A stretch of DNA of 64,000 bases from contig CAZKFC010000002.1 in NCBI GenBank assembly GCA_964552005.1, positions 35,188 through 99,187 on the forward strand, written 5' to 3'. Each line of letters begins with the position of its first letter. Position 1 is the first letter of the stretch. The stretch comes from an uncultured Methanosarcinales archaeon (GTDB lineage Archaea > Nanobdellota > Nanobdellia > Woesearchaeales > GW2011-AR15). The notes beneath the pieces are model-generated. The model saw only the letters and a program-made list of their open reading frames with translations. It did not search any database and was not told where the DNA came from. The position numbers and the translations under genes are program-made. Below are positions 5,101 to 55,938 of the stretch, one piece after another.

Positions 5101-5819
5101 TCAACAGCAGCTCCTGACACATGGTTATCCTCATATCTTATTGTCAATAAAGCATCTGGAGAGAATTCAATACTTTCAGGAGTAAATTCATATTTTACTT
5201 TTCCTAAAACAGAAGGATCATCTGGACATTCTTCTTTAACATAAACTTGAATCTCATCTAAACCTGGTGTTACTTTTGTACCTTTTTTAATACTTAACTC
5301 TAAATCCAAATCTGGACTTACCAACACCTGGTCTTTAACTGTTTTTGAATTTGTGTCAAGTTCTAAAGAAAGTGATTTTGTTCGGGGTAATGATAAACTA
5401 GATTTTTCAAATTTTACAACTGTATCATCTCTAGAAAATTGCATGGGATACACAATATCAACAATAATTTCTTCTTCTGTTATGCGGACATCAATTTTAT
5501 CTGGCCTGCTTTTGGCAGTAACCTCATAGCCTTTCCTCCTATATTTATCAAAACCAATACATGTTGACATCCCTCTATTGATTGTTCCCTTAATATCATT
5601 TTCTTCACACAAACCATAATCATCAATAGACTTTAATAGCAAAGTATATAAACAATCATCAAACTGGCTTCTCAAAGAACTTTGAGTGACAGTTGTTGGT
5701 GTCTCTCGGGTAAGCTGTTGTTTTTTAACAACTGTGCTCCTGTATGCAAAAAAACTTATCATAAGTATTAATAAAATACCAATTATGACATATATTGTAA
5801 CTTGAGATTTAGATTTCAT
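2172..5819 (-). CDS. Giant (1215 aa) secreted or membrane-anchored Cys-rich protein with multiple thrombospondin type-3-like Ca-binding repeats and a possible TIM-barrel glycosidase-like middle domain.
   Basis: N-terminal hydrophobic anchor 'VIIGILLILMISFFAY'. Repeated DxDxDGxxDxxDxC motifs (e.g. 'DTDNDGIKDTEDNC', 'DIDGDGWADTCDNC', 'DEDGDGIGDVCDNCANDPNPLQKDWNNDGIGDAC'). 'IEIGEEPN' resembles the GH5 NEP motif (weak). Confidence 0.7.
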   Translation of the reverse strand: MKSKSQVTIYVIIGILLILMISFFAYRSTVVKKQQLTRETPTTVTQSSLRSQFDDCLYTLLLKSIDDYGLCEENDIKGTINRGMSTCIGFDKYRRKGYEVTAKSRPDKIDVRITEEEIIVDIVYPMQFSRDDTVVKFEKSSLSLPRTKSLSLELDTNSKTVKDQVLVSPDLDLELSIKKGTKVTPGLDEIQVYVKEECPDDPSVLGKVKYEFTPESIEFSPDALLTIRYEDNHVSGAAVEESFKLAYLKDNHWVTVESSADVEKNKVKTSTPHLSEWSASCEGSVKQGLQVMFHDILYEDSDFADLIVDRDLACSNQFSGPCGYVKLITYYDPDVDNYLEFYETVFNKIYDQELIPVITLKKEKANDFSKHPGECADNLDCIYGEDEDGTTGIPIYDYTTDIDKAVELINRIHADKPEWTLYIEIGEEPNLAKEWNDISVTDYEIKQYARYFVEMASAIKALPHGNSIKIMPAGLAPTTGQQKCELSPYYAKDTHGEPSTFDMVEKYNGGAEQYSFTKADCELLGYMTDYLSGDKNYCTGETPDNYVAPSCDPVCNRCDTNVDPECDDELYIETDCFNTQQERENCICSPKKNYIKHILSWYDFYKTDFEHVFSDLNIPVESCDMAEVDKAKVIQQRIKETFQKFCYEKNVEVDTNSYLTKMLSDIDYGAQVCSLMDLYADHSYPSVDDIDTYPGGSNPFGMQAYKDRFKLVKSLCSQTQDFNIKCTAIDAQDTDNDGIKDTEDNCINTPNENQLNWNNNDYGDACEDYDSDGVLDIDDKCPDDNTIQEGTDIDGDGWADTCDNCVDKPNRDQKDLDNDDIGDKCDDNTDDDGIPEIGFTQKCVYNDIQDITIDCVDNCMYTPNGPDLGTCKNDHTITCLSDDQCDSGKCQLNQEDEDGDGIGDVCDNCANDPNPLQKDWNNDGIGDACQDSDNDGYDDDIDLCPNTASTENTAVVCQPDELCIGKIMITETAWGPHPDIVQPDLPDYEADDYADEMELSFDNWLTDANILAVIPFHLGDETVTSESLINYSWTVELCENECVGKDIYNRLGQLDTPITECGIEEPVPGGPCINLTIRLQNLGSEVGSNNVVYKCFGCDEDGTYDEPSETPESKTPVNGINYIYHGIEDCFEKTLDLPQHCPDADGTVKEGLIGDFVTIDGKEYVAMILCEPSLESTKAKVHICGTAEYCDYSVENCYQTKGSYGDWWHQCLIPE

Positions 5820-10158: not shown

Positions 10159-11133
10159 TTACGCCAGAATGTCCAGTGCAACTTTTTGTCCTGGTGCCAA
10201 ATTATGCCTCTCACTAAACCCTGCCTTAACTTCAATAACATATAACGCGGGTTCATCTGGATCATATAAATCACATGGCTCTTCTGTACAAGGCTCTACT
10301 CTTTTATGAATTGTAACTATTTCTTTATTTTCATTAAGAAAAATAATATCTATGGGAATCTTCATGTTCTTCATCCAGTACTTATATTGTCCTGGTTGTT
10401 CAAAAACAAATAACATAGCGTCTTTCTCATCTAAATTATCTCGGAACATTAATCCCAGGGTTCTTTCTTCTGGCGTATCTTTAATTTCCAGATTAACACA
10501 GTATCCATCAGAAAAACATGCTTTGTCATTGTTATCTGTTAATGGGATAAAAAAGAGTAATGTAATAAGCAACATAATTATTAAAATAAAGATTAATTTT
10601 GTACTATTATGTTTCAACTGAAAAATAGATTTTTTTTCCATATTATGTAATTGTAACAGCAATTTTTCTGTTAAACTATATAACATTATAATTACGTATA
10701 AGTATATTAAAATTCTGCTTTCCACAAAAATATTTATAATAACAACAACAGGAAATAGTATGGCAGCAAGTAAAGCAGCATAGTTTCTCATGAAAATTAA
10801 TTTTTCAGTTTTTACTTTACTTATAATCTGGATAATAACAAAATAACTAAATAAGAAAATACCTACAAAAAGATATTTTTTAATTAAGTCTGCTTTTAAA
10901 AAATAAAAACTTACAACTGAACAAAGCACAATAAAGTTGTCAGCAATAACATCAAATTTTTTCCCAAAAAGTGTTGTTAATTTTAATTTTCTAGCTATAA
11001 AACCATCCAATACATCTGTAATTAAAGCCGAACAATAACTTATCACAAAACCAAGTATGTCTCCAATATAAGCAAAACATATCATAATCAGACCAAGTAA
11101 TAATCTGGAAAAAGTGATGATGTTTGGCAACAT
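10159..11133 (-). CDS. Fusion protein: N-terminal CDP-alcohol phosphatidyltransferase (membrane) joined to a C-terminal DUF192 (COG1430) domain.
   Basis: 'DVLDGFIARKLKLTTLFGKKFDVIADN' matches D-G-x2-A-R...G-x3-D-x3-D. C-terminus 'TLGLMFRD...AMLFVF...YWMKNMKIPIDIIFLN...YVIEVKAG' is DUF192-like. Confidence 0.62.
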   Translation of the reverse strand: MLPNIITFSRLLLGLIMICFAYIGDILGFVISYCSALITDVLDGFIARKLKLTTLFGKKFDVIADNFIVLCSVVSFYFLKADLIKKYLFVGIFLFSYFVIIQIISKVKTEKLIFMRNYAALLAAILFPVVVIINIFVESRILIYLYVIIMLYSLTEKLLLQLHNMEKKSIFQLKHNSTKLIFILIIMLLITLLFFIPLTDNNDKACFSDGYCVNLEIKDTPEERTLGLMFRDNLDEKDAMLFVFEQPGQYKYWMKNMKIPIDIIFLNENKEIVTIHKRVEPCTEEPCDLYDPDEPALYVIEVKAGFSERHNLAPGQKVALDILA

Positions 11134-11185: not shown

Positions 11186-11362
11186 ATGGCAAGACGTGAT
11201 AAAATTAACATGCCGATGTCTGGCGCAGGTTTAACACGGTATTTTGATGATTATAAGTCAAAAATAGAGTTCAAGCCTGGACATATTGTATTTCTAGCAG
11301 TTATAGTAATTCTATTAGTTATCTTACTCCATAACATGGGCAATAGGTTATTAGGTATTTAG
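11186..11362 (+). CDS. secG: Preprotein translocase subunit Sec61-beta (archaeal SecG). This 58-aa gene is below the ORF-track length cut-off.
   Basis: Translation 'MARRDKINMPMSGAGLTRYFDDYKSKIEFKPGHIVFLAVIVILLVILLHNMGNRLLGI' has the conserved 'SGAGLxRYFD' motif and a C-terminal TM. Confidence 0.55.
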   Translation: MARRDKINMPMSGAGLTRYFDDYKSKIEFKPGHIVFLAVIVILLVILLHNMGNRLLGI

Positions 11363-11403: not shown

Positions 11404-12966
11404 TTGTTAAAATTTTCAAAAGATTTATTAAAGACTCTATATACTAATTTCTCTATAAAAAAGGGGTATTATATGGAAACAAGAGCTATTGATTCTTATC
11501 AGCTTATGGTTAATGAGACAATTCCCTTACAAATTCATATATACAGCCAAAAAGGAAAGGCCGTGCCGTTCTACCATTTATCTTTATTGGATATTACTGA
11601 TGAAACTAAAAGGATTATAGAGAGGATAAGAGAAGATATCATAACAAGTTTAAGTTTTGAGTTAACTAAGAAAAAAACAAAAGAAGGCGAAGAAGAGATA
11701 AAAGAACAGTTTCAAAAAAAACTTAAAGAAATTATAAAGACGCAATTTTCAGATTTAAAAGAGAAAGATATTGGTTTAATAACAAATTACATAATAGTAA
11801 CCAGTCTAGGATTGGCAGAGATTGAGTTTTTATTAAAGGATGCTGAACTTGAAGAAATTGTTGTTAATTCATCAAAAGATCCTGTCTGGGTCTACCATAG
11901 AAAATACGGTTGGTTAAAAACCAATATTGTGTTCAAACAAGAGAATAAAATTAGGCATTTTTCAACTTTAATAGGAAGAAATGTAGATAAAAACATTAGT
12001 TTATTAGAACCATTATTAGATGCACATCTAAAATCTGGGGACAGGGTAAACGCTACATTAAGCCCAATAACTACAAAAGGCAATACAATAACAATAAGAA
12101 AATTTTCTAAGACACCATGGACAATAACTCATTTCATAAAAAATAAAACTATAGATTATACTTCTGCAGCCCTTATATGGCAGGCTATACAATATGAATT
12201 ATCAATATTAATAGCAGGCGGAACAGGCTCAGGAAAAACTTCTTTTCTTAATGTAATAAGCAATTTTTTTCCTCCTAATCAAAGGATTATATCTATTGAA
12301 GATACCCGTGAGCTTAGATTGCCCAAAACCCTACATTGGGTCCCTATGCAGGCCCGTCTACCAAATCCAGAAGGCAAAGGCGAAATTACCATGCTAGATT
12401 GTATGATTAATACTTTAAGGATGCGTCCAGATAGAATAATAGTTGGAGAAGTTAGACGTGAGAAAGAACTTGAAGTTATGTTTGAAGCAATGCACACAGG
12501 CCATTCTGTTTACAGCACGTTTCACGCTAGCAACATAGATGAAGCTATAGCCAGACTAACAAATCCGCCTATTAATTTGCCAAAACAATTGCTTTCCTCA
12601 ATAGGCCTAATTGTTGTACAACATCGGAATAGAAGAACTGGAAAAAGAATTACTTTCCAGATAGCAGAAATAAATGAATTAGGCCAGCCCGTATTATTGC
12701 TACAGCATGATTATCTCGGAGATACTATGAAACAAGTTAATTCGCCAAACAGAATTTTAAAAACATTAAACATGTATACTGGCATGTCAACAAAACAGAT
12801 ATACGCAGACATACAAGAGAAAGTTGCGGTATTAGAATGGCTTGTAAAGCAAAACATTACAGACATCAATATAATAGGATTAATAATGAGTGATTATTAC
12901 ACAGAAAAACAGCACATTATATCTTTAGTACAAACAAACAGCCCATATAAGTCAATAGGTGAATAA
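11404..12966 (+). CDS. Type IV pilus or archaellum assembly ATPase (FlaI/TadA/PilB-like).
   Basis: Walker A 'GGTGSGKTS', 'IISIEDTRELRL' and His-box 'FEAMHTGHSVYSTFHA'. Confidence 0.8.
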   Translation: MLKFSKDLLKTLYTNFSIKKGYYMETRAIDSYQLMVNETIPLQIHIYSQKGKAVPFYHLSLLDITDETKRIIERIREDIITSLSFELTKKKTKEGEEEIKEQFQKKLKEIIKTQFSDLKEKDIGLITNYIIVTSLGLAEIEFLLKDAELEEIVVNSSKDPVWVYHRKYGWLKTNIVFKQENKIRHFSTLIGRNVDKNISLLEPLLDAHLKSGDRVNATLSPITTKGNTITIRKFSKTPWTITHFIKNKTIDYTSAALIWQAIQYELSILIAGGTGSGKTSFLNVISNFFPPNQRIISIEDTRELRLPKTLHWVPMQARLPNPEGKGEITMLDCMINTLRMRPDRIIVGEVRREKELEVMFEAMHTGHSVYSTFHASNIDEAIARLTNPPINLPKQLLSSIGLIVVQHRNRRTGKRITFQIAEINELGQPVLLLQHDYLGDTMKQVNSPNRILKTLNMYTGMSTKQIYADIQEKVAVLEWLVKQNITDINIIGLIMSDYYTEKQHIISLVQTNSPYKSIGE

Positions 12967-13106
12967 ATCTGTTCTTCTCAAAACAATTTGAGGAAACTTT
13001 AAAAAAAGCCCAGCTTGGATATGATATAGAAAAATTTTCAAAATTAGTTTTTACATTTAGCTTTATTGGTTCTATATTATTAACTTTATTTGGATTATTA
13101 TTTGTT

Positions 13107-13763
13107 ATGCAATTAAAATTGCCTTATTATTTTCTTACAATAATTTTTGCTATTTCATTTTTATTAATATTCCAATTAATAAAATTAATCCCTTCATTCA
13201 GTGTGCAAAATAAACGTGCATTACTTGAATCAGATTTATTATATAGTACTAGGCACTTATTATTAAAATTAGAAAGCGGTTCTTCTTTGCTTAACGCGTT
13301 AGAAAGTGTTTCAAAATTAAAGACAAATTCAAGTGTTTTTTTCAAAGAAATAATTTATGATGTGTCTCTGGGAATGCCAATTGAAAAGGCATTAGAAAAA
13401 GCAATTGAATACAGCCCAAGCAAAGCTTTTACTAAAATAATTGAGGAAATACAAACCTCTTTGGTAACTGGAGCAGATTTGCAGAAAACATTAAAATCAA
13501 CATTAAAAGATGTAACAAGACAGCACCTAATAGCAATACAAGAATATGGTAAAAAACTTAATCCCATGTCTATGTTTTACATGATTATTGGCACAATAGT
13601 TCCTTCTTTGGGAACAGCAATGACAGTTGTAGCCACAAGTTTGTTACCGGGTGCAATAATAATTGACAGGCGAATTTTAATGTTTATAGCTGGTTTATTA
13701 TTAGTAATACAGATTTTTTTCATATTAGGATTTAAATCATTGAAGCCAATGGTGATTGAATAA
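13107..13763 (+). CDS. TadB/TadC/FlaJ-like pilus platform membrane protein (first of two). The true start may be the in-frame TTG at 12987, which adds one more TM helix.
   Basis: T2SS-F-like hydrophobic pattern. It sits immediately downstream of the ATPase. The in-frame upstream extension encodes the TM-like segment 'LVFTFSFIGSILLTLFGLLFV'. Confidence 0.55.
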   Translation: MQLKLPYYFLTIIFAISFLLIFQLIKLIPSFSVQNKRALLESDLLYSTRHLLLKLESGSSLLNALESVSKLKTNSSVFFKEIIYDVSLGMPIEKALEKAIEYSPSKAFTKIIEEIQTSLVTGADLQKTLKSTLKDVTRQHLIAIQEYGKKLNPMSMFYMIIGTIVPSLGTAMTVVATSLLPGAIIIDRRILMFIAGLLLVIQIFFILGFKSLKPMVIE

Positions 13764-14767
13764 TGTTTTATGGATTAGGAAAAGCAATTTTACCAGATAA
13801 AATAAGTAAACATATTAAGAAATATGTTCAAAAAACTGGCTTATATAACGTGCCTTATTCATTATATGGAAGTTTATTTGTATTATCAATCTTAGTTTCA
13901 ATAGGCGTCTATGTTTTTTTTGTATTTCCAAGTTTAAAAACAGCCAATCCAATTGTTTTAGGATTAGGATCGTTTATTGCACTTACAGTAATTGATTTAA
14001 TTTTAATAACTATAATTGCTTTAGTATTATGGTTGTACTATGAATTTATAATCTTTAATAGAGTTAGGCAGATTGAAGATGTTCTGCCAGATTTTTTGCA
14101 AGAAGTTTCTGTTAATTTACGAGCAGGAATGAGTTTTGACAAAGCTTTGTGGAATAGTATGGAGCCGGAATTCGGTGTATTAGAAACAGAAATAGAAACA
14201 GTTGCAAAGAAAGTCATGACAGGTAAAGATACTGAGCAAGCATTAAAAGAATTTTCTCAAAAATATAATTCAACATTGCTACAAGAATCCATGGACATGA
14301 TTATTGTTGGATTAAGATCTGGTGGCAACATATCTGATTTAATAGACAGGATAGTTGATAATGTCAAAGACGCGTATTACTTAAGAAAAGAATTAATTGC
14401 TTCTGTCACAAGTTATGTTATTTTTATTGCATTTACTGCTGTTTTGATATCTCCAACACTGTTTGCATTATCCTTTAATTTAATGGAAATAATCCAAGGA
14501 TTAGGAGAAAAATTATCCACTACAAGTTCTTATGGTGTGCTGCCTTTTAATGTGGGTTTTAAAAGCATTAACCCTGAAGATTTTATTTTGTTTTCAAAAA
14601 TTTCTGTTATTATAATATCAACAATATCTGCGATGATAATTGCAGATTTGCGTGAAGGAAGTATAAAAGCAGGCCTTAAATATTTACTGGCTTTTATACC
14701 ATTGGCTTATTTTACATATATTGGCATGTTAACAATATTCACAAGTATTTTTGGAATCATAATTTAG
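13763..14767 (+). CDS. TadC/FlaJ-like pilus platform membrane protein (second of two).
   Basis: Polytopic protein with a cytoplasmic helical domain (T2SS-F-like). Its start overlaps the stop of the upstream gene (ATGA). Confidence 0.6.
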   Translation: MFYGLGKAILPDKISKHIKKYVQKTGLYNVPYSLYGSLFVLSILVSIGVYVFFVFPSLKTANPIVLGLGSFIALTVIDLILITIIALVLWLYYEFIIFNRVRQIEDVLPDFLQEVSVNLRAGMSFDKALWNSMEPEFGVLETEIETVAKKVMTGKDTEQALKEFSQKYNSTLLQESMDMIIVGLRSGGNISDLIDRIVDNVKDAYYLRKELIASVTSYVIFIAFTAVLISPTLFALSFNLMEIIQGLGEKLSTTSSYGVLPFNVGFKSINPEDFILFSKISVIIISTISAMIIADLREGSIKAGLKYLLAFIPLAYFTYIGMLTIFTSIFGIII

Positions 14768-15198
14768 AAACTAATAGTATCATCTAATTTAGTTTTACTT
14801 TTTTTAATAGTGCCTTGAGGCAGTTCAATTACATAACTAGCTTTGTTTTTAGAAACATAGATAGTAAAGGGTTTAAAATTTTCCTTAATTTCTATTACTC
14901 TTTTATTATCATCTAAAAACAAAACATCTATAGCATAAAAAACAAAGAACATGTGTAAATCTATTTTTTTTGGCTTTGAAAATTTAAATATATAACCAAT
15001 ATCAAGAATCTTTTTAGAAAACATTAATCCTTTTGCTCTTGAAAGAACACTGGAAAGAATTTTTTTATTTTCAACTAATACAGAATTTTTAGTTTTATTC
15101 TTAATCATTTTAGCAGGGACTTTTTGATAAATCATTAACACCGTACAAAATGAGATGATCATTCGGCACTCGTTCAATCCTAAACAATTCACGAACAT
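14764..15198 (-). CDS. Stand-alone DUF192 (COG1430) domain protein.
   Basis: 'RAKGLMFSKK...LHMFFVFYAIDVLFLD...YVIELPQG' parallels the C-terminal domain of the 10159..11133 product. Confidence 0.5.
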   Translation of the reverse strand: MFVNCLGLNECRMIISFCTVLMIYQKVPAKMIKNKTKNSVLVENKKILSSVLSRAKGLMFSKKILDIGYIFKFSKPKKIDLHMFFVFYAIDVLFLDDNKRVIEIKENFKPFTIYVSKNKASYVIELPQGTIKKSKTKLDDTISF

Positions 15199-16108
15199 CT
15201 GTATCTAAGTCAGTAAAATCACAGTAATCTTTACCAATGCCCGTTGTTGTTTGTTCACCAAAATAGAGATAATCAATAACAGACCTGTTCTTTTTCAAAA
15301 GTCCTTGCTCAAACAACTCTTCGACATTCACCATGCTCTCAATTCCAAAGGGTGATGATGATAAATTACCAGTAAATCTCATTAAGAAACTTGGCGCATC
15401 TGTATGATTAATATAATAAGAATTTAACAAATGCCCTTCTAAAATAGTAGTATCATTATTAGGACCAATAAAAGTCATATTTGGCGTAATGTTTACTAGA
15501 TTAGTAACTTTGTCTGAGGTTTCAACCGTATAAAGCGGATCTTCAAACCCAATTATCGAAAATTCTTGTTTGTATTCTTTATCAAAAACCCATGATGCCA
15601 GACCCTTAACATCGCTTATGTTTATGGTTGCGTTAAGCCTTACTTCAACCGTCCAAGGTGTTATATGTTGGATACTTACTTCATGGACTTTTACTGAAGT
15701 AATAATATTAAGTTCATCTGCTTCTTCATTTACTCTGGCAACCCAACTATTAATGTCTGCACCCTGTGTTTCCTGTCTCATTAAGCTCATTGTAATATTA
15801 CCATTGTCTGCTGTTCCATTTACCAATATCTCTGTAAATGTTTCGTCAAGATCTGTTACATAACCTTGGATTTGTCTAACGTAAGCGTTCATACTGATTA
15901 GTGCCCTATATCCTCCTATGAATAACTCCCTTTCCAAATCTTCATCAAAATCTTGGATAAAATTGTTCATTGTTTTAACTCTTGAATATATTGCACTGCT
16001 TCTTTCTCTATATCTATATGTATCTTTAGTAGTTACAACTGCCACCACCAAGATAATAACAAACAATGCTATAAATGTAAAAAACACGCCCTTATTATTT
16101 ATCTCCAT
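15110..16108 (-). CDS. Pilin-like protein with a class III signal peptide-like N-terminus.
   Basis: 'MEINNKGVFFTFIALFVIILVVAVV'. It overlaps the upstream giant pilin by 10 nt, which suggests translational coupling. Confidence 0.5.
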   Translation of the reverse strand: MEINNKGVFFTFIALFVIILVVAVVTTKDTYRYRERSSAIYSRVKTMNNFIQDFDEDLERELFIGGYRALISMNAYVRQIQGYVTDLDETFTEILVNGTADNGNITMSLMRQETQGADINSWVARVNEEADELNIITSVKVHEVSIQHITPWTVEVRLNATINISDVKGLASWVFDKEYKQEFSIIGFEDPLYTVETSDKVTNLVNITPNMTFIGPNNDTTILEGHLLNSYYINHTDAPSFLMRFTGNLSSSPFGIESMVNVEELFEQGLLKKNRSVIDYLYFGEQTTTGIGKDYCDFTDLDTDVRELFRIERVPNDHLILYGVNDLSKSPC

Positions 16109-19100
16109 ACTCTTACCTCAGCTAATGCAGGTCCCCATGGATATGGGATTTTACCAACTGAAATTGCGCCAATAACAAAATTTTGTTCTTCAATATTAAC
16201 ATATATACGGCCGTCATCATCAAAATCTAAGTTATCAAGTAAATTATACATTGCATCATCATACGTATCATTAGCATCATAACTTATAGAAGCGTTTGTG
16301 TAATAACATTGTTTTGTGCCTGTATATGTTGGCGGTACATCCACTGTTGTATTTTCTCCATCTTCAAATTCAATAGACCATTCACAACCGATGGCTTTTT
16401 CTAAAACATCGCTATATGAAACAGAAGCTGTAAATTGCGCAGTATAAATCAAGGTATTATTTTTAGAACATTCAGTATAATTTAAAGGTGAATCACCTGT
16501 TCTAATGAAAAAACTATTGTTACCTGCTTGCAATGTTGGCACAGGTATATTAACTAAGAACGGATCACCCATGGCTGTATAATCTGTTGAATAATCACTT
16601 AGATTATATACAGAATTATTGTTTACTATTAAAGCATCTGTCCAGTGTTCAGATGAATATGACGTTAACTTTGAGTTTGAAACACGGACATCTCCAGGAA
16701 TATATACATTGAAAGAACAGCCTGGGAAATTTTTTTCTTCTACGATAATTGAAATTTCGCCAAACTCTGGCGGGTCTACTAATGGATCATATTCTATATC
16801 TATATTAGAGTCACCATATAAAATACTTTCAGAGATATCTCCTGAACCTTCAATTTCAATCGTCTGTGAATGTCTAGTAGCAGAGATTATTGTAGAGGCA
16901 ACATCCTGATAAAATTGCTGCAGAGCAGTAATATTATCGCTTTTTCTATATATACCATTACCGCAATCTGCTATACCCTGTAAAGTTGTTTCATCAGCAT
17001 TATCACTAAAGCCAACAGCATAAACTGTAATACCATACTCTTGCCTAGCATCACAAGCTGCCTGGATAGCATCCTGGATAGCGTCTCCTGTTCCTTGCTG
17101 AGCGCATTGCCTATTTGCAACACCGTCTGTCATGACCATTATTGCATCTTCCCTTGTGTCATTTAATATTATTAATTCTAAATCAAATTTGGCTGCTCTT
17201 GCAGTATTTGATAAGTCAACAGCAACAACATTATCGCCTTGCTTAAAATATTCTCTTGGCACTTGTATACCGCGAGCATTCCAATATTGGGCAAAACTTG
17301 GATTTGGACTTATATATATTAGTTGGCCATTCAAATATACTTTTGCTGTATCATCATACAAAACATTAAGAACTCCTCTTCCAACTTGATTTAAATCCGC
17401 AACATTAAAGTGTTTTCTAAAATAATAATGGTTTGTTTTATTAGTAATTTTTAACTCAATGTTGTCAAATCTCCACCAGCCGTATTCTTGACTTTCAGAC
17501 GCTCGTAATTTCCCGCCAAGTTCAAGATAATAATTTCCTGGACCTGTTATCCATGGAGAAACGTCTTGGCTGTATGTGCCTGAAAATTCTGCATCGGGAT
17601 TATCCATTGTAAAAATCTCAGGATCATTATCAGAGCCACCATCATTAGCATCTAAGTCTGTACCAAGATAATTTGAACTTGTTGAGCTGGACCATCTAGC
17701 TTTTACCCAGACTTGGTCAGATGTTTCAAAAGGATTGTCATTACCATCCCATTCATAATTAAATGAGAGGATTGCTGCTCCGTTTGCCTGTATTAAATTG
17801 TACATTTCCTGCGTAATATTGATTTCTATACCATACGCACCAGAACAATCATAATTCGAGCAATCATTTTGTGTAATGTCATTATCCATTTCCAATACTT
17901 TGTTAGGTCCAACAGTTACAACTTGATTATAATCAATGTTATCATCAAAACCAAATACACCATTATTATCTAATGTGTCCCAGTCCCAGCCGTCATCATT
18001 TCCAGTAATACCAAAAGTATTGGCAGTTGAATTTAAAACACCTGATGAAAAGTCGTTAGGCGGTCCTGTAATATCTCCAGTATTTTCCCATAGATTTGCA
18101 TAGATTGCATCTGGGTCAAGTTCTTCAAATTCTAATTGTATATTATCAAACCTAAATGTGCCCCATTCTGTATTCTCACTTGCAAGTAATTTCCCACCTA
18201 TAGCCAAATAATATAATCCTGGCCCTTCTATAAAGGAGGTAATTTCTTGTGAATATGTGCCAGAAAAGTCTGTATCAGGATTAGTACGTCTGTCAACTTC
18301 TAAAGTTGTATCTCCTCCAGAAGAAGATAATTCCGCACCTAAATAATTAGTGCCAGAGGTAGGACTCCACCAGTAAGATTTTATCCAGACTTCATCTGTG
18401 CTTTCAAAGGGATTGTTGTCATTACCGTCCCAGTTATAGTTAAAAGAAATCTTTACTTTTCCTCCGTTTACTACAGCATTATATAATTCAGAAGTTATGT
18501 TAATGGCTATGCCATAAGCACCACTACAATCAAAATTTGTACACGCATTACTGCCAGCAACACTTGTATTAAACTCTAACTGTCCGTTAACTATCTCGTT
18601 ATAGCTAATATCGTCATCATATCCAAAAGGGCCTGAACCATCATTATTATTATCATAATCCCAGCCGTCATTATTGCCCGTGCTGCCGAACGTATTAGCT
18701 GTATAATTTAATATGCCAGATGAAAAGTCATTGGGTGGCCCGGGATTATCTAAATTATGTTCCCATAAATTTGCATAAGAAGTATTTCCTGCTAAAGAAC
18801 TGCCAATTTCTGTATCTACAATAGGGCTATAGACAAATCCATTAGTAGAACCATAAATAGCATTATCACTATAAGACCAATCTGATTCATTATCATAATT
18901 ATTATGATACCATGAATCTCCGTCATCATCTACAGGCGGCGGACTAAGAAAATAATTAGTAGTGTAATACCATTGCTCTTTTGACTGAATAACTGTGTTT
19001 TTTGAAATATTCTCTGTTAATATTGCAACAGCACTATTTATACCGCAGCATACACAAGTCGCGCCGCTGCCTTCATATCCTGTTTCTGGTACAGCTGTTC

Positions 19101-20550
19101 CGATTGTCTGATTTAATATATCAAAATTCGTCGTAGGATATACTGTCTCAAATGCATGTGTAGTATCATCATAAGAAATTAAACCTACTTGGTTTCCAGT
19201 TATGTTTAATATATCTTTTGAAAACTGTTTATCAAGACATTTAGCTACACTTAGCCTTGCTGTGCTTGAATCATTAAAATTTGCATCATCACAATTGCGT
19301 GCAGTGCCTGTATTATCACTATCCATACGCCAATCCATACTTCCAGACACGTCTGTTACTAATGTAACATCGGCATTTCCCTCAAAGATAAAGCCAAAAC
19401 TTACATTTTCAAAGCCAACTCGTATAGGCACGGTTTTAGCATTCATTGATGACAAGGCAATATATTTAGTAATGTTCTGCACAGTTACTGTGTGGTTTTT
19501 CTCTCCTGTTAAATTACTATCTTTATAGACGGTTGAATTTCCTATTGTCAAATAAAAAGTATTATTTGTGGCATTTGTGGCATTAACAAAATAATGTAGA
19601 TAAACTGATATGTTGTTTAGTGTTCCTGGAACATAAAAGGAAGAGTATAAATTAATTATGCCTTCTATATTGGGAAGCCATTCTTTTAGCGCATATTTTA
19701 ATGGTTCTTGCTGAAGAACATCTGTTTGGTAATCTACTCTTATAAAACCACCTCCAATAAATGCTTCTCCTAAATCACCTAAAAACGAAATTGAAAAATT
19801 ATTTTTTGCACCCTCGGCTAAAGAATTATCGCAACTGCTTATATCCCATGCATCTGCAGTCATTGTACCTGTACCTGCACTATAAATTCCGCCACACTGC
19901 ACACCATTTATATCTAAATTAAAATCAGAGCCAGCATCAAGTTCTAAATATAATCCTGTGATATTAATATCAGATGGTAAGACTATAAACCCTGAAATAT
20001 TGCCTTGACCAACGAAACCTCCAAAATACAGGTAAGAAGAATATTTTTTCCTTCTAATTCCTTTTAAATAAACTTTTGATGTTGCTCCTCTTAATGGCTT
20101 AAACTTTTCTATGCCGGATATTAATCTTCGGGAAGAAACTAATTCATCTTTTTTCCCTGTTGGAGAATCATTCAGATAAATAGACTCGCCATTTACCAAA
20201 ATCTCAAAACCAAATTTATCTGGGATTAATTTTTCACTTACAATAATAGACAAATTTCTAGCCAACTCAGTTTTGTTCAAAACATAAAATTCGCCAATTT
20301 GTTCTATAACTGAATTATTAAGATTGATTATTTCACCTGAACTTATAAGAGACTGTATGTAAGAATCATTAACTTCTGTAATCTTTATATTAGATAGGCT
20401 TGCCACAATGTCCTGGGAATAATAGTTTATTTGTGGTTGTTGTATTTCTGAAATGAAATATTTTGATGAAAGTATTAGAGCCATGCCTATTAAAATTGTG
20501 GCAAACAACGCATCTAAAGTAAAAAAATATCCTTTCTTCATTCTTGCCAC
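16099..20550 (-). CDS. Giant pilin-like adhesin (1483 aa): class III signal-like N-terminus, a vWA domain apparently interrupted by a large insertion, and a tandem duplication of about 225 aa.
   Basis: 'MARMKKGYFFTLDALFATILIGMAL'. MIDAS 'DVSGSM' near aa 400. Second-half vWA motifs 'AIMVMTDGV...GITVYAVGFS' near aa 1135. Repeats begin 'YANLWEHNLDNPGPPNDFSSG' (aa 592) and 'YANLWENTGDITGPPNDFSSG' (aa 817). Confidence 0.7.
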   Translation of the reverse strand: MARMKKGYFFTLDALFATILIGMALILSSKYFISEIQQPQINYYSQDIVASLSNIKITEVNDSYIQSLISSGEIINLNNSVIEQIGEFYVLNKTELARNLSIIVSEKLIPDKFGFEILVNGESIYLNDSPTGKKDELVSSRRLISGIEKFKPLRGATSKVYLKGIRRKKYSSYLYFGGFVGQGNISGFIVLPSDINITGLYLELDAGSDFNLDINGVQCGGIYSAGTGTMTADAWDISSCDNSLAEGAKNNFSISFLGDLGEAFIGGGFIRVDYQTDVLQQEPLKYALKEWLPNIEGIINLYSSFYVPGTLNNISVYLHYFVNATNATNNTFYLTIGNSTVYKDSNLTGEKNHTVTVQNITKYIALSSMNAKTVPIRVGFENVSFGFIFEGNADVTLVTDVSGSMDWRMDSDNTGTARNCDDANFNDSSTARLSVAKCLDKQFSKDILNITGNQVGLISYDDTTHAFETVYPTTNFDILNQTIGTAVPETGYEGSGATCVCCGINSAVAILTENISKNTVIQSKEQWYYTTNYFLSPPPVDDDGDSWYHNNYDNESDWSYSDNAIYGSTNGFVYSPIVDTEIGSSLAGNTSYANLWEHNLDNPGPPNDFSSGILNYTANTFGSTGNNDGWDYDNNNDGSGPFGYDDDISYNEIVNGQLEFNTSVAGSNACTNFDCSGAYGIAINITSELYNAVVNGGKVKISFNYNWDGNDNNPFESTDEVWIKSYWWSPTSGTNYLGAELSSSGGDTTLEVDRRTNPDTDFSGTYSQEITSFIEGPGLYYLAIGGKLLASENTEWGTFRFDNIQLEFEELDPDAIYANLWENTGDITGPPNDFSSGVLNSTANTFGITGNDDGWDWDTLDNNGVFGFDDNIDYNQVVTVGPNKVLEMDNDITQNDCSNYDCSGAYGIEINITQEMYNLIQANGAAILSFNYEWDGNDNPFETSDQVWVKARWSSSTSSNYLGTDLDANDGGSDNDPEIFTMDNPDAEFSGTYSQDVSPWITGPGNYYLELGGKLRASESQEYGWWRFDNIELKITNKTNHYYFRKHFNVADLNQVGRGVLNVLYDDTAKVYLNGQLIYISPNPSFAQYWNARGIQVPREYFKQGDNVVAVDLSNTARAAKFDLELIILNDTREDAIMVMTDGVANRQCAQQGTGDAIQDAIQAACDARQEYGITVYAVGFSDNADETTLQGIADCGNGIYRKSDNITALQQFYQDVASTIISATRHSQTIEIEGSGDISESILYGDSNIDIEYDPLVDPPEFGEISIIVEEKNFPGCSFNVYIPGDVRVSNSKLTSYSSEHWTDALIVNNNSVYNLSDYSTDYTAMGDPFLVNIPVPTLQAGNNSFFIRTGDSPLNYTECSKNNTLIYTAQFTASVSYSDVLEKAIGCEWSIEFEDGENTTVDVPPTYTGTKQCYYTNASISYDANDTYDDAMYNLLDNLDFDDDGRIYVNIEEQNFVIGAISVGKIPYPWGPALAEVRVWR
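17428..18777 (-). repeat. Intragenic tandem duplication (two units of about 675 nt / 225 aa) inside the giant pilin gene.
   Basis: The two units align along their full length ('...NDFSSG.LN.TANTFG.TGN.DGWD.D...DCSGAYGI.INIT.E.YN....G....SFNY.WDGNDN.PFE..D.VW.K..W....S.NYLG..L...DG......D.PD..FSGTYSQ.....I.GPG.YYL..GGKL.ASE....G..RFDNI.L'). Confidence 0.55.
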
Positions 20551-21710
20551 AGTACCACCTTCATTGCAATAATTTCAGATATGCCGTCATGTTTATAAAC
20601 AACATATCTTGTTAAGGCTATTAATTTTTCTGGATTGGATGCTTTTACATCGTTAATAGAGGAAAGGTTTTGTGCTGTTGCAAAAGGATATGCTAAGCCA
20701 TTGCCGGAGTTGTACAATCTACCAATCTCATTTAAATCTAACGCCCTGTTCCATATCCCAATTTCATCAATTTTTCCGTCAATAATCAACGACTCTGACG
20801 TGGTTGAAAGAATATGTAAACCATTACTTCCCACATTTAATGTGTTTGTATTTATATCTGTATCTCCAAGCACTCCGTTCTTATAATATTTAAATTCATT
20901 AGTTGTAGAATCATGCGTAATCGCAATGTGTTGATAGATTGAATCATTTAATGTCCAGCCATCATTACATACTGTAGCTTTTCCCACAAGAACAAAAGCT
21001 ATTTTATGACCTGCTGAACAACCGTGAGAAGCAGTAGCTTCTTCTCTTATGCCCCATCCATCATCCATAAAGATGTATTCTCCATCGTCTTGTCCATTTG
21101 GTGAATACCAGAAACTTATAGTTAAATCTCCTGTTACATCAAAATCATCGTAATCTGGCGCTTCCAGAAATCCTGCACCATTACTTTCTCTACCGTCTCC
21201 AATAATTCCCGCTGTATTAGTTGTTCCTGAGTTCAATAAATCTATATTTCCTAATTCGTCTGAAAAATCATTATTGTTCAATTTATAGTATGCAATTAAA
21301 CCGTTTTCTAAAGTATCATTGCCTTTATAATTATCAAATCCCCACAAAACATTTCCTTCCTTATCTTCAAAATACACTAAAAAATCAGATTTTATTCCAA
21401 ACAAATTTTTTACTTTATTGCTATTCTTATTAGTAAGATTAATTAGATATTGCAGTTTGGTTGTATTTAAAATATTGCCCTTATCAACAACACCGGGTAT
21501 TAATACTGTGTCTTCTGTCCAGTTAGTGGGAATTCCCATTGTCAATAATGTTTCACTTAATTTTTCTGCTTCTGACAAAACATTGTTTGTTTCCTTACCT
21601 GGTATATAAAAATTGCTTGTAACAAATTTAAAGGCTATTATTAATATCAATGTAAATATAGTTACACCCATGATAAAATCAAAGTACCATATTTGGTTTT
21701 TTTTATTCAT
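20538..21710 (-). CDS. Pilin-like protein with a LamG/concanavalin-A-like lectin domain.
   Basis: N-terminus 'MNKKNQIWYFDFIMGVTIFTLILIIAF'. Central 'GLIAYYKLNNND...LLNSGTT...GAGFLEAPDYDDFD...LTISFWYSP' is LamG-like. Confidence 0.62.
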   Translation of the reverse strand: MNKKNQIWYFDFIMGVTIFTLILIIAFKFVTSNFYIPGKETNNVLSEAEKLSETLLTMGIPTNWTEDTVLIPGVVDKGNILNTTKLQYLINLTNKNSNKVKNLFGIKSDFLVYFEDKEGNVLWGFDNYKGNDTLENGLIAYYKLNNNDFSDELGNIDLLNSGTTNTAGIIGDGRESNGAGFLEAPDYDDFDVTGDLTISFWYSPNGQDDGEYIFMDDGWGIREEATASHGCSAGHKIAFVLVGKATVCNDGWTLNDSIYQHIAITHDSTTNEFKYYKNGVLGDTDINTNTLNVGSNGLHILSTTSESLIIDGKIDEIGIWNRALDLNEIGRLYNSGNGLAYPFATAQNLSSINDVKASNPEKLIALTRYVVYKHDGISEIIAMKVVLWQE

Positions 21711-21711
21711 T

Positions 21712-22059
21712 TTAACAGTTTAAACATAACACATTATTTTGGTTTGTAATTATATTATCTCCTTTTTGAATATATCCTGTTATGTTTGGTATTGAAAAAT
21801 AAACAACATTATCCGAATAATTTAACAATAGGATGTTGTTTATTATGGAAACTTCAAAATCAAACCCCTCCAATTTTTGTGGTATGTAAAATACCCGAGT
21901 ATAACCTGGCTTTGTTTGTTTAGCTATCAGGAACTCGTTCTGCAAACTGTAGCCATAATCCTCAAAAATAATCCTTTTTTTATCTCTTAAATTGTCTTGG
22001 TAGAGTTCTGAGAAAACAACTGTAAAGATTATTACCATGGTTGTTGCTGCCATTATCAT
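21712..22059 (-). CDS. Pilin-like protein. The annotated ATG lies inside the predicted class III signal; the conserved 'RKAQVSTEF' motif is encoded in-frame upstream (22060–22161) with no ATG/GTG/TTG.
   Basis: In-frame upstream translation '...IKFFEFQSSSGTLRKAQVSTEFIFMIMAATTMVIIFTVVF'. An in-frame stop lies at 22162–22164. Confidence 0.45.
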   Translation of the reverse strand: MIMAATTMVIIFTVVFSELYQDNLRDKKRIIFEDYGYSLQNEFLIAKQTKPGYTRVFYIPQKLEGFDFEVSIINNILLLNYSDNVVYFSIPNITGYIQKGDNIITNQNNVLCLNC

Positions 22060-22139
22060 AAAAATAAACTCTGTACTTACTTGCGCTTTTCTTAAAGTCC
22101 CAGAAGAACTTTGAAATTCGAAAAATTTTATTTTTTCTT

Positions 22140-22547
22140 TTATCCTGATATCGATACAACATCACCAGAAGATTCTATAACTATATAATGAATGCCGGGG
22201 TTAACAGAAATAGATCCTGTTAGATTAACTTGTGAAACTGAAACAATATCTTGAATGTGGTTTTTTGCTGTCCTATAACCAAAGATTATTGTCCGTGATG
22301 TTATATTAATGTAGTCTATCCGTTCTGGAAACTGTGTTTTTAAAGTGGTTTTAGACGGCTCTCCTAAGTAATATATTGTCTCTGCCTTATCTGTGATTTT
22401 TATGGCAATATTTCTTAGATGATTAGTCGCTATGGCATCCTGAACTGTGCCAGATTGATCAAAAAAAATAATTATTAAGGGAATAGTCATCAAAAAAACA
22501 AAACCGAATATCGTAATAAACTCAACACTAACTTGACCTCTTTTCAT
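22140..22547 (-). CDS. Archaeal type IV pilin (DUF361/EppA-substrate-like); a candidate major pilin.
   Basis: 'MKRGQVSVEFITIFGFVFLMTIPLIIIFF' has the KRG|QxSxEF class III signal and a hydrophobic N-terminal helix. 135 aa. Confidence 0.65.
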   Translation of the reverse strand: MKRGQVSVEFITIFGFVFLMTIPLIIIFFDQSGTVQDAIATNHLRNIAIKITDKAETIYYLGEPSKTTLKTQFPERIDYINITSRTIIFGYRTAKNHIQDIVSVSQVNLTGSISVNPGIHYIVIESSGDVVSISG

Positions 22548-22683
22548 TTAACCTTGTTTATCCACATTAACTATATAAATTTAACTTTATAAATCAAAAA
22601 GATTTATATATTAAGGAGTTAATTATGTAAGCATAAAATCAAAAGGGTGGTCTAAAATTACTCAAAGAAATTTTAATCTCGAC

Positions 22684-23175
22684 ATGGATTCTTACTTAGC
22701 TAAAAGAAGAAAACCTGTTAAAAAAGAAAAAAAGAAAAAACCTACTAAAGTCAGTAAGGATGAAAAAGAGTTCAAAAAAGAAGTAAACAACTATTACTCT
22801 GAAAAAAAATCTTTTTTTGAAAAAATTCTTGATTTCATTGCAGGACCTCCAGATGAAGCTGCCACAATAAAAGAAGAAGAGAAAAAAGAACTCGAAGAAG
22901 ACAAGAAAGAATTAGATGAGTTTGAGGAAAAAAAAGAAAGCAGGGGCATAATTGAGATTATCAAAAGTTGGTTCATGTCAGACGAAGAACCTGATGAAAC
23001 ACCTGAGGAAGAAATTGAAACTGTGCCAGAAGTACCTGAAGAGATAAGAGAAGTTCTAAAAATCCAGAACAAATGGCTGTTAAGATTGCCAAAGCGGATT
23101 ATTAAAGATTTCAAAACTTCAAAGGATTATGAAGTATATAAAGAGACTTTAAGAAAATACAACCTCATAAAATAA
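22684..23175 (+). CDS. Highly charged Lys/Glu-rich protein of unknown function.
   Basis: Low-complexity K/E-rich sequence with no recognisable motif. Confidence 0.4.
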   Translation: MDSYLAKRRKPVKKEKKKKPTKVSKDEKEFKKEVNNYYSEKKSFFEKILDFIAGPPDEAATIKEEEKKELEEDKKELDEFEEKKESRGIIEIIKSWFMSDEEPDETPEEEIETVPEVPEEIREVLKIQNKWLLRLPKRIIKDFKTSKDYEVYKETLRKYNLIK

Positions 23176-55936: not shown

Positions 55937-55938
55937 TT

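Follow-up and report, generated by a model that had tools for sequence, protein, structure and literature searches.

A type IV pilus-like locus with a candidate adhesive tip cassette in a DPANN archaeon

What do five prepilin-like genes, set beside the genes of a type IV pilus-like assembly machine, contribute to the surface of the archaeon that carries them? The locus lies in a stretch of archaeal DNA of 64,000 nucleotides (the window) and comprises plus-strand machinery genes and five minus-strand genes, g1 to g5, followed by a DUF192 gene. The initial annotation described a complete pilus locus with a battery of adhesins, and all the genes that it named were found at the positions it gave. 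On balance, we favor the reading that the locus is the type IV filament machine (adhesion-pilus-like) of a DPANN archaeon and that g1-g5 form its tip complex. The features are the following:

10159..11133, minus strand: fusion of a CDP-alcohol phosphatidyltransferase with a second DUF192 domain (CDP-OH_P_transf 7e-15, DUF192 8e-33)
11404..12966, plus strand: assembly ATPase of the PilB/FlaI/TadA family (Pfam T2SSE 1.3e-35)
12963..13763 (listed from ATG 13107), plus strand: platform protein 1, TadB/TadC-like, one T2SSF domain (1.2e-10)
13763..14767, plus strand: platform protein 2, one T2SSF domain (3.5e-13)
14764..15108, minus strand: DUF192 (COG1430) protein, 114 aa (PF02643 9e-18; PDB 3pjy 3e-6)
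15110..16108, minus strand: g5, prepilin-like, 332 aa, N-terminus NNKG-VFFTFIALF (predicted cleavage after G)
16099..20550, minus strand: g4, giant modular prepilin-like adhesin, 1483 aa, MKKG-YFFTLDALFA (predicted cleavage after G; VWA 5e-9)
16876..17154, minus strand: C-terminal half of the g4 vWA domain, residues ~1133-1225 (VWA 4.9e-9)
17167..18780, minus strand: insertion inside the g4 vWA domain (two repeats and a GH2-N-like module)
19006..19365, minus strand: N-terminal half of the g4 vWA domain, residues 396-515 (VWA_2 1.2e-4 on the isolated piece)
20538..21710, minus strand: g3, prepilin-like, 390 aa, N-terminus KKN-QIWYFDF (predicted cleavage after N; Laminin_G_3 8.8e-16)
20724-21176, minus strand: LamG (ConA-like lectin) domain of g3, residues ~179-329 (Laminin_G_3)
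21712..22155 (listed 21712-22059), minus strand: g2, small class III-signal pilin (extended ORF, PF04021 6.5e-7)
22140..22547, minus strand: g1, small pilin, 135 aa, MKRG-QVSVEF (predicted cleavage after G; PF04021 E=0.009, partial, below threshold)
22572..22579, minus strand: TTTATATA element, ~25-32 nt upstream of the g1 ATG, read from the sequence

An archaeal RNase P is encoded in the window, and the g4 and g5 homologues that carry labels belong to Woesearchaeota, Nanoarchaeota, Aenigmatarchaeota or Micrarchaeota, all of them DPANN and mostly Woesearchaeota. These observations bear out the earlier guess of a DPANN genome, and the source is most likely a tiny symbiotic relative of Woesearchaeota. 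Of 81 related loci taken from species-representative genomes, about 65 keep the order g1-g2-g3-g4-g5, which recurs in no fewer than 60 genomes. A DUF192 homologue was found in 32 related loci, and in about 30 it comes after g5; in L005 and L006 a 114-aa gene holds the position directly behind g5. Thus, g1-g5 are one fixed-order cassette, usually with DUF192, rather than a loose battery of adhesins. An ATPase homologue lies within 10 kb of the cassette in 46 related loci, and both platform genes do so in 37-38. In some loci, L006, L008 and L013 among them, the cassette has no ATPase at that distance. The CDP-alcohol phosphatidyltransferase-DUF192 fusion adjoins the ATPase also in L005, L010, L012, L028 and L040.

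The Pfam matches confirmed a T2SE-type ATPase and two platform genes on the plus strand. The ATPase has the Walker A motif GGTGSGKT, and among solved structures it is closest to A. fulgidus GspE (2oap, 7e-63), FlaI (1e-52) and CpaF (1e-43); its NCBIfam scores for FlaI (1e-77), TadA (6e-54) and the bindosome ATPase BasE (1e-45) all fall below cut-off. Its true start is likely ATG 11473 (METRAIDSY..., 497 aa), and the syntenic homologue in L005 has 493 aa. The platform is split over two genes with one T2SSF domain each. The conserved N-terminus and first TM helix of platform protein 1 sit 5' of the listed ATG 13107: INLFFSKQFEETLKKAQLGYDIEKFSK and a TM helix, in frame upstream, align with the N-termini of its homologues (265-279 aa; L040, L010, L005, L012). 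No ATG, GTG or TTG was found ahead of this conserved sequence, and ATA 12963 or CTG 12969 is the candidate start. The start of platform protein 2, which scores below the NCBIfam cut-offs for both ArlJ/FlaJ (2.5e-13) and UpsF (4e-8), overlaps the stop of platform protein 1 (TAATG).

On the minus strand, g1 is the first gene of an operon whose sixth and last gene, DUF192, had been missed when five co-oriented genes were reported. The TTTATATA element is possibly an archaeal TATA box for these six genes, to judge from its letters and position. g4 starts at GTG 20550 or at ATG 20541, the latter overlapping the stop codon of g3 (ATGA). Of the overlaps of 4-13 nt claimed previously, those at g3/g4 (4 or 13 nt) and g4/g5 (10 nt) are real, but g2/g3 is separated by a 1-nt spacer (TAAAATG), as is DUF192 from the g5 stop. 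No signal peptide or TM helix was detected in the DUF192 product, which is a conserved cytoplasmic, putatively accessory protein.

The N-termini of g1-g5 follow a common plan, in which basic residues are followed by G/A/S and a hydrophobic helix. Each gene has its own motif, conserved across 65-78 homologous loci, and the class III-like N-termini are therefore not due to chance, which upholds the earlier description of all five. The acidic residue differs by gene: g1 and g2 have Q+1/E+5, g3 and g4 have D+6, and g5 has none at +5/+6. Conservation extends to 65 loci for the g1 motif, [KR][GSA]Q-x-[SA]-x-E-[FY], to 72 for that of g3 (Q-x-W-x-x-D-[FY]) and to 78 for that of g4. The short pilin gene at 22140..22547 and its motif are present as annotated, but its assignment to DUF361 is below threshold in PF04021 (Class_IIIsignal), which we take to be the former DUF361; 18 of 61 g1/g2 family members match this model. 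In g2, the class III motif LRKA-QVSTEF (predicted cleavage after A) lies upstream of the listed ATG 22059, from which the product would have 115 aa; only the extended ORF, ~147 aa from ATC 22155, passes PF04021 (29.5 bits, with the gathering cut-off at 23.7). No canonical start codon for g2 was found in the window or in the seven closest loci, which all share a conserved (C/S)-I-N containing an ATC or ATT codon, and synonymous changes occur within the QxSxEF codons.

The vWA gene of 1483 aa and the LamG gene were both recovered (VWA 4.9e-9, Laminin_G_3 8.8e-16). g4 has 521 homologues at E<1e-5, the labelled ones DPANN, and the vWA giant is universal to the cassette. Extra domains of ~350 aa in total precede its vWA domain, which is interrupted by inserted modules spanning about 620 aa and has an intact MIDAS site. 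The N-terminal half carries D400-x-S402-x-S404 and T498, all four residues invariant in 27 homologues; the C-terminal half, where the VWA match covers residues 1135-1215 (profile positions 105-173), carries the MIDAS Asp D1141 in MTDG, whose equivalent D533 is nearly invariant in 62 homologues. The insertion contains two repeats of ~218 aa each (residues 591-808 and 817-1035) with no Pfam match, and a module of ~90 aa (residues 1040-1128) that weakly resembles the GH2-N galactose-binding domain (Glyco_hydro_2_N2 E=0.11). Homologues have zero (n=44), one (n=36) or two (n=6) copies of the repeat, and the module is present zero or one times. An AF2 model of a 911-aa core homologue, P0090 (pLDDT 85.8), matched the S. 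sanguinis vWA pilin PilB best in the PDB (7ba2, 3e-9), followed by Mfa5, SpaC and RrgA. g4 has 39 N-x-S/T sequons, and this high density, seen also in g5, was counted in favor of an extracellular location, of which N-glycosylation sequons would be a hallmark.

The core of g3 is a distant relative of DUF7287, which matches 14 of 66 g3 homologues. Because the last ~45 residues of g3 align with the C-termini of 175-aa homologues, LamG is an insertion; it occurs in one of the 66, in this genome only, and inserts differ between genomes. LamG is thus a lineage-specific insertion whereas vWA is universal, and therefore a pilus type cannot be defined by having vWA and LamG together; the combination also has a bacterial precedent (PMC8179133). 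The g5 family comprises about 2,000 clusters at 50% identity and has no Pfam model. In its structure model a 76-residue N-terminal helix packs on an antiparallel sheet, and g5 is a candidate for the subunit that caps the tip complex. As one cassette of fixed order, g1-g5 look like a minor-pilin or tip complex of set stoichiometry, with adhesion modules confined to g4 and, here, g3.

Does the machine extend a long pilus? Instead, the ATPase and platform could build the five class III proteins into a short stalk within the envelope, a pseudopilus or bindosome-like scaffold that keeps the lectin, carbohydrate-binding-like and vWA modules at the cell surface and serves to scavenge substrates or to hold cells in permanent contact. 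The cargo, with LamG and the weak GH2-N-like match, looks suited to binding carbohydrate, the ATPase has its below-cut-off similarity to BasE, and archaeal TFF machines have been proposed to be functionalized by binding proteins with class III signals (10.64898/2026.04.22.720090). Moreover, no small pilin besides g1 and g2, and no separate, dedicated major pilin, was found in the window. However, g1 and g2 are small pilins of the kind that forms filaments elsewhere, with g1 the candidate major pilin, and many related loci have an extra g2-like pilin of 150-170 aa 3' of the platform genes. In addition, g4 is structurally most like adhesins of pilus tips and no product is a solute-binding protein, so that we regard a short scaffold as unlikely.

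Less probable still is that the N-termini are ordinary uncleaved signal-anchors and g1-g5 independent membrane-anchored surface proteins beside a pilus machine. g3, g4 and g5 reach no pilin Pfam model; profile searches revealed no A24 prepilin peptidase in the window, and screening of polytopic GxGD proteins in 86 related loci found none either. For this reason we do not claim that the locus is complete, as the initial annotation did, and prepilin cleavage is an assumption. Plain anchors, however, need no gene-specific cleavage-site motifs (Q+1/E+5, D+6) conserved in 65-78 loci, and they are at odds with the PF04021 match of extended g2 and with the fixed order, translational coupling and linkage to the ATPase and platform genes. 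Type IV filaments are multifunctional, and it has been proposed that symbionts with reduced genomes, which depend on imported nucleotides, use such filaments for DNA uptake. We give very little credence to a competence-type or other non-adhesive filament here: a cassette of four or five minor pilins does resemble ComGC-GG sets, but no result is specific to DNA uptake, neither the cassette nor its surroundings showed DNA-binding or ComEA/ComEC-like genes, and the conserved large subunit bears a vWA-MIDAS domain and lectin-type modules.

We therefore return to the adhesive filament, for which minor-pilin and adhesin models have been proposed in archaeal T4P (PMC4858521). In our model, a prepilin peptidase encoded elsewhere would cleave g1-g5, which would then come together by way of their N-terminal helices in a single initiation or tip complex, parallel to the bacterial GspH-K, FimU-PilVWX with PilY1, TadE/F/G-CpaJ/K/L and S. 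sanguinis PilA/B/C. g5 would cap the complex, its acidic residue absent as in GspK. g4 would display the MIDAS-containing vWA domain with the variable carbohydrate-binding-like modules inserted in it, and g3 the lineage-specific LamG lectin. The shaft may be formed by g1 (and g2) or by a pilin encoded elsewhere, and the targets of the modules may be proteins or glycans of a host cell or of some other surface. The cassette probably builds an adhesive pilus tip, and host attachment through this predicted tip is plausible; it offers a concrete candidate for how the cells attach to hosts or surfaces.

For the type IV pilus loci of cluster-2 DPANN, Hamm et al. 2024 (PMC11291902) describe chiefly coiled-coil proteins along with FlaF/PilA; the main text of that study mentions neither vWA nor pilins, and the g1-g5 and DUF192 cassette is not described there. 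Archaeal Epd-like pili (clade 1, Makarova et al. 2016; "System 1", Sivabalasarma & Albers 2026) likewise have an ATPase and two platform genes. Each locus also holds five or more class III minor pilins, large adhesins are predicted at the tip, and DPANN are listed among their carriers. Their class III signals are of the Q+1 type, as here, which is the type of DUF361 and EppA substrates. In contrast, Epd-like loci encode EppA, a major pilin of ~70 aa without globular domain and a DUF2341 adhesin; here the first two are absent, the adhesin is vWA, and the ATPase is closest to A. fulgidus GspE. A weak PilB3_C match in one related locus and the kinship of g3 with DUF7287 would point toward System 2, if both are, as we presume, haloarchaeal families.

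Among bacterial systems, the four or five minor (pseudo)pilins of FimU-PilVWX with PilY1 in type IVa pili and of GspH-I-J-K in the T2SS prime assembly and stay at the tip, and g1-g5 can be likened to them; one subunit, GspK, lacks the conserved acidic residue, as does g5. These systems share no sequence homology with g1-g5, which belong to an archaeal envelope without secretin. PilY1 is a large adhesin with a vWA domain (PMC8179133) but not a pilin, whereas g4 bears its own class III N-terminus.

The Tad pilus, with the minor pilins TadE/TadF/TadG (Caulobacter CpaJ/CpaK/CpaL), likewise uses a TadA/CpaF-family ATPase (CpaF 1e-43 here) and two single-T2SSF platform proteins, TadB and TadC. [quoted passage not shown] Differences are that Tad has three prepilin-like genes rather than five, no product here matches TadE or Tad_N in Pfam, and the signals here are of the archaeal class III type (Q+1/E+5). 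The vWA insertion lies between the MIDAS-Thr helix and the MIDAS-Asp strand here but after the first segment in CpaL; secretin, TadZ and TadD are absent here, and DUF192 is an extra conserved gene. In Streptococcus sanguinis, PilB (vWA-MIDAS) and PilC (ConA-like lectin) are modular pilins with their modules at the pilus tip (PMC8179133). The bacterial IPR012902 motif is absent here, and the modules of PilB and PilC are C-terminal on a small pilin, whereas LamG lies within g3 and the g4 vWA domain is interrupted. However, the pairing of a vWA pilin with a lectin pilin recurs in g4 and g3, and no structure in the PDB matches the g4 core better than PilB (7ba2, E=3e-9). By analogy, the best reading is that this locus is an archaeal counterpart of the bacterial complexes of minor pilins with a vWA tip subunit (TadE/F/G-CpaL, PilA/B/C).

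The region 11404-22547 contains nine real genes, three on the plus strand and six co-oriented on the minus strand, five of which are prepilin-like (g1-g5):

11404-12966, plus strand: ATPase, a 520-aa ORF; T2SSE 1.3e-35 (Pfam), Walker A GGTGSGKT
12963-13763, plus strand: platform gene 1, listed from 13107
13763-14767, plus strand: platform gene 2
14764-15108, minus strand: DUF192 gene, 144 aa in the ORF list; DUF192 9e-18 (Pfam)
15110-16108, minus strand: g5, 332 aa
16099-20550, minus strand: g4, 1483 aa; VWA 5e-9 (Pfam)
20538-21710, minus strand: g3, 390 aa; Laminin_G_3 9e-16 (Pfam)
21712-22155, minus strand: g2 as extended here (21712-22059 in the ORF list)
22140-22547, minus strand: g1, 135 aa

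The initial annotation had named a secretion-type ATPase, two platform proteins, a lectin-bearing pilin and a vWA pilin, and Pfam bears out each of these: T2SSE in the ATPase, a single T2SSF domain in each of the two adjacent plus-strand platform genes (1e-10 and 3.5e-13), Laminin_G_3 in g3 and VWA in g4. The ATPase, whose true length is probably 497 aa with a start at ATG 11473, is nearest to FlaI (1e-77) and then TadA (6e-54) in NCBIfam, both far under the cut-offs; among solved structures (PDB) it matches A. fulgidus GspE (7e-63), FlaI (1e-52) and the Tad ATPase CpaF (1e-43). All five minus-strand genes described initially are present, but the co-oriented run has six members, the last being the DUF192 gene, whose real product is almost certainly 114 aa long, with a start at 15108. 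As read from the sequence, the minus-strand junctions are those of a translationally coupled operon. The reported start/stop overlaps occur at g3/g4 (ATGA, or 13 nt with a GTG start) and g4/g5 (10 nt), but g2/g3 reads TAAAATG, as does g5/DUF192; the platform genes are joined as TAATG.

DUF192 domains lie on both sides of the ATPase-platform block, one fused to a CDP-alcohol phosphatidyltransferase (10159-11133, minus strand) and one in the free-standing 114-aa protein (14764-15108, minus strand). Both neighbours are kept in the related loci L005, L010, L012 and L040, and the fusion also lies beside the ATPase in L028; a literature search for DUF192 found nothing relevant and no link to pili. 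Between the fusion gene and the ATPase, a small unlisted ORF (11186-11356, plus strand) encodes a Sec61-beta-like protein (MARRDKINMPMSGAGLTRYFDDY...), and L005 has a PF03911 gene in the matching position.

In a scan of species-representative genomes, a g4 relative was encoded in 159. Jackhmmer searches covered 80 retained loci plus six fetched earlier, 86 in all, of which 81 were non-duplicate. About 65 of these 81 keep the fixed order g1-g2-g3-g4-g5, and most exceptions are loci cut by contig ends. Five pilin-like genes are indeed present, as the initial annotation had it, but they constitute one fixed-order cassette rather than a battery. DUF192 homologues were found in 32 loci, following g5 in about 30; within 10 kb, 46 loci have an ATPase homologue and 37-38 have both platform genes. 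The ATPase and platform genes are usually on the cassette strand, directly downstream, and after the platform genes there is often one more g2-like pilin, of 150-170 aa. The ATPase-platform block of the window, like that of the closest relatives (L005, L010 and L012), is inverted and flanked by the conserved CDP-alcohol phosphatidyltransferase-DUF192 fusion. Exceptions to the cassette are L004/L007, L032, L051 and L078. The nearest homologue of g4 (68% identity) has neither g1-g3 nor g5 beside it, and some loci of Aenigmatarchaeota, Altiarchaeota and Woesearchaeota carry two tandem g4 paralogues.

Comparison of the window with the 86 fetched loci revealed that each of g1-g5 has its own N-terminal motif, conserved across 65-78 loci and followed in all five by a hydrophobic helix. 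The motifs (slash, predicted cleavage site) are [KR][GSA]/Q-x-[SA]-x-E-[FY] for g1 and g2, K[AGS]/Q-x-W-x-x-D-[FY] for g3, KK[GA]/[FYI]-x-F-[TS]-[LI]-D-A for g4 and KK[GA]/[VMFI]-x-[FY]-T, which has no acidic residue, for g5. Against PF04021 (Class_IIIsignal), which we take to be the former DUF361, g1 scores only a sub-threshold E=0.009. The extended g2, whose motif LRKAQ/VSTEF lies upstream of the listed ATG, passes with 6.5e-7 (29.5 bits against a gathering score of 23.7), and 18 of the 61 members of the g1/g2 family match the profile. The class III signals proposed for g1 and g2 are thereby upheld over ordinary Sec signals or anchors. For g3-g5, the class III evidence is the conserved motif plus the hydrophobic helix; plain Sec signals or anchors are unlikely because the residues at the predicted cleavage site are conserved.

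The locus had also been called complete, which is not borne out because neither a prepilin peptidase nor a further small pilin was found. The window ORFs scanned with Pfam include no A24 prepilin peptidase (PibD/FlaK/EppA), and the window yielded no further small pilin. A screen for polytopic GxGD ORFs across the 86 related loci returned only K+ channels and one transporter, and no peptidase. A 250-aa five-TM ORF at 50978-51730 was considered as the peptidase and rejected, having no Pfam hit and no GxGD motif.

Two genes of the locus appear to start at non-canonical codons. Upstream of the conserved class III motif of g2 (22059-22161, minus strand), ATG, GTG and TTG are all absent, and the same start is missing in L005, L006, L009, L010, L011, L012 and L024. 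In the window and these seven closest relatives, the g2 signal peptide opens with a conserved (C/S)-I-N, whose Ile codon is ATC or ATT (ATC 22155-22153 in the window) and lies 2-8 codons past an in-frame TGA, overlapping the end of g1; ATG occupies this position in more distant loci. Because the codons of the QxSxEF stretch differ by synonymous changes, this upstream region is translated, and the sequence pattern suggests AUC/AUU initiation, or reinitiation. The window g2 signal peptide also carries an extra 18-aa insertion. A g1-g2 fusion by frameshifting is an unlikely explanation for the missing start, as the class III motif would then be internal. The first canonical start of platform gene 1, at 13107, is preceded by a conserved N-terminal segment (INLFFSKQFEETLKKAQLGYDIEKFSK) and the first TM helix, so that standard annotation would cut 48 residues. 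This stretch (12963-13106, plus strand) is in frame from ATA 12963, right after TGA 12960-62, and overlaps the ATPase stop codon; platform 1 homologues have 265-279 aa and start with ATG or GTG.

The vWA domain of g4 is split, with about 620 aa between its halves. D400-x-S402-x-S404 and T498, all invariant in 27 homologues, lie in the N-terminal half (residues 396-515), which scores VWA_2 1e-4 as an isolated piece; the nearly invariant Asp of MTDG lies in the C-terminal half (residues 1133-1225). The insert comprises two repeats of about 218 aa and a module of about 90 aa, with a weak GH2-N galactose-binding-like match (E=0.11). Among homologues in a local jackhmmer search, the repeat occurs in 0 (n=44), 1 (n=36) or 2 (n=6) copies and the last module in 0 or 1, and this variation accounts for the g4 length classes of about 900, 1250, 1480 and 1600+ aa; a homologue search with the repeat module itself gave one fragment. 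An AlphaFold2 model of a 911-aa insert-free g4 homologue (pLDDT 85.8) consists, in order, of an N-terminal hydrophobic helix, a small helical domain, beta-sandwich domains, the vWA and C-terminal beta domains. Its best PDB match is the vWA minor pilin PilB of S. sanguinis (E=3e-9), followed by the pilus-tip adhesins Mfa5, SpaC and RrgA; searching PDB sequences with the g4 profile gave weak vWA hits only.

The LamG domain of g3 is an insertion, because the C-terminal residues of g3 (about 45) align with the C-termini of its usual 175-aa homologues. This Laminin_G_3 insert is the window's only concanavalin A-like domain and is lineage-specific, LamG being present in 1 of 66 g3 sequences, and other long g3 proteins have different inserts. 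DUF7287 is a distant relative of the g3 core, matched by 14 of 66 members with a best E of 1e-5; g3 itself has no real match in the PDB by sequence. A g5 profile search of 1.84 billion cluster representatives gave 1,987 matches at E<=0.001, 755 of them at E<=1e-30; almost all of the best 150 of the 1,987 are about 290-350 aa long, and g5 matched no Pfam family. Source labels of the cassette subunits are mostly "hypothetical" or "VWA domain-containing protein".

We consider it most likely, by analogy, that the locus would build a type IV filament whose initiation or tip complex is formed by g1-g5. This reading draws on the fixed gene order and translational coupling, the related yet distinct N-termini of five subunits, the lack of the acidic residue in one of them and one large vWA-MIDAS subunit, all of which parallel bacterial minor-pilin complexes; GspK likewise has no conserved acidic residue. 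The binding modules vary, which suggests adaptation to different ligands, and attachment to host cells by the cassette pilus, as proposed initially, would be a reasonable function. Alternatively, the five subunits, in a window where no further small pilin was found, might form a short surface scaffold or bindosome-like display system, which we regard as unlikely. Plain membrane anchoring without processing, opposed by the conserved cleavage-site residues, is more improbable still, and a DNA-uptake filament is the least probable of the three.

A more ambitious reading than the tip complex, combining the modules, DUF192 and the non-AUG starts, is doubtful: g1-g5 and DUF192 would be an undescribed DPANN-wide organelle for host recognition. 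Its five-prepilin tip complex would set host or surface specificity through exchangeable modules, namely LamG in g3 and, in the g4 vWA, 0-2 carbohydrate-binding-like repeats and other inserts. DUF192, as a cytoplasmic protein, would serve as a new factor in assembly or processing, perhaps making up for a linked A24 peptidase that is apparently absent, and the non-AUG starts (AUC/AUU in g2, AUA in platform 1) would set subunit stoichiometry.

The DPANN origin suspected in the initial annotation is supported. The window encodes an archaeal RNase P RNA and has a G+C content of about 31%, and named g4 and g5 homologues are overwhelmingly labeled as Woesearchaeota, Nanoarchaeota/Nanoarchaeia/Nanobdellota, Aenigmatarchaeota, Micrarchaeota, Altiarchaeota or "Nanohalarchaeota", or just as "archaeon". 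Twenty-four related loci from third-party (TPA) assemblies carry the label "uncultured Methanosarcinales", which we treated as unreliable because every other labeled homologue is from DPANN.

Other parts of the window may also encode surface structures. Back to back with the gene for a second T2SSE-family ATPase (216-2171, plus strand; 651 aa, E=9e-14) is a gene (2172-5819, minus strand) whose 1215-aa product combines thrombospondin type 3 repeats with a class III-like N-terminus, MKSKSQ/VTIYVIIG. Hamm et al. 2024 reported a second conserved DPANN pilus-type locus, to which the pair may belong. A minus-strand gene run without Pfam hits (54063-60176) may represent another surface structure: it encodes three paralogous secreted or lipoprotein-like proteins of about 300 aa (54063-56892), a 671-aa membrane protein and a 412-aa protein with an internal MKNKKAQ/VGY... 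motif followed by a hydrophobic helix. Two strongly K/E-rich plus-strand ORFs (53107-54066 and 22684-23175), one divergent from the pilin operon promoter, likely form coiled coils; Hamm et al. 2024 tie coiled-coil proteins to DPANN pilus loci (PMC11291902).

On the means by which DPANN archaea locate and hold their hosts, published work names type IV pilus loci in general terms only. The cassette is a specific six-gene module and very widespread, with a g4 relative in at least 159 species-level genomes and about 2,000 clusters at 50% identity for g5 alone. Its pilus-tip adhesin architecture and lineage-specific swapping of binding modules make the attachment hypothesis testable. It would extend the "modular pilin" principle, a concept not new for the pilus field, from bacteria to archaea. 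Rather than a new category of system, it is a concrete candidate for the attachment of DPANN cells.

Three of the four core features of the TFF superfamily are present (ATPase, T2SSF platform and class III subunits). An archaellum was rejected, as FlaH/ArlH, FlaF/G, FlaCDE or FlaX and archaellin genes were not matched in or around the locus, and FlaI and FlaJ scored 259 and 50 bits against equivalog cut-offs of 550 and 400. With Epd-like systems (clade 1/System 1, as defined in PMC4858521 and 10.64898/2026.04.22.720090), the locus has in common its pair of platform genes and a set of five or more class III minor pilins. However, it lacks their dedicated EppA, major pilin of about 70 aa without a globular domain (arCOG06620) and DUF2341 adhesins; the window has no 9-TM EppA-like ORF, no pilin of about 70 aa and no DUF2341 hit. 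The ATPase closest to GspE, a weak PilB3_C match in the related locus L002 and the relation of g3 to DUF7287 hint at the euryarchaeal System 2. Makarova et al. proposed minor pilins and tip adhesins for archaeal clade 1 loci, in which a pair of platform genes occurs with five or more minor pilins (PMC4858521), and a 2026 preprint places DPANN among carriers of split-platform systems (10.64898/2026.04.22.720090); neither mentions a vWA pilin, LamG or DUF192. The conserved T4P loci of cluster-2 DPANN described by Hamm et al. 2024 are framed as coiled-coil proteins, not as the g1-g5 cassette (PMC11291902). Literature searches for a DPANN vWA pilin found nothing, and the g1-g5 plus DUF192 cassette has no description in the literature searched.

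Among bacterial systems, CpaL, the Caulobacter TadG orthologue, is pilin-like, two beta-rich domains interrupt its vWA, and a pilus cap made of CpaL, CpaJ and CpaK has been predicted (PMC12607857). The vWA of g4 is split as in CpaL, and the likeness to TadG/CpaL is architectural only, with no Pfam or NCBIfam hit to TadE or Tad_N at E<=0.1. The modular pilins PilB (vWA) and PilC (ConA-like lectin) of S. sanguinis sit at the tip (PMC8179133). Similarly, g4 combines a class III-like N-terminus with a vWA carrying invariant D-x-S-x-S and T and a nearly invariant D, and g3 combines one with LamG. Taken together, this is a genuine DPANN type IV filament locus, which is not a sequence-level member of TadE/F/G or PilA/B/C and which, by analogy, appears to work like them.
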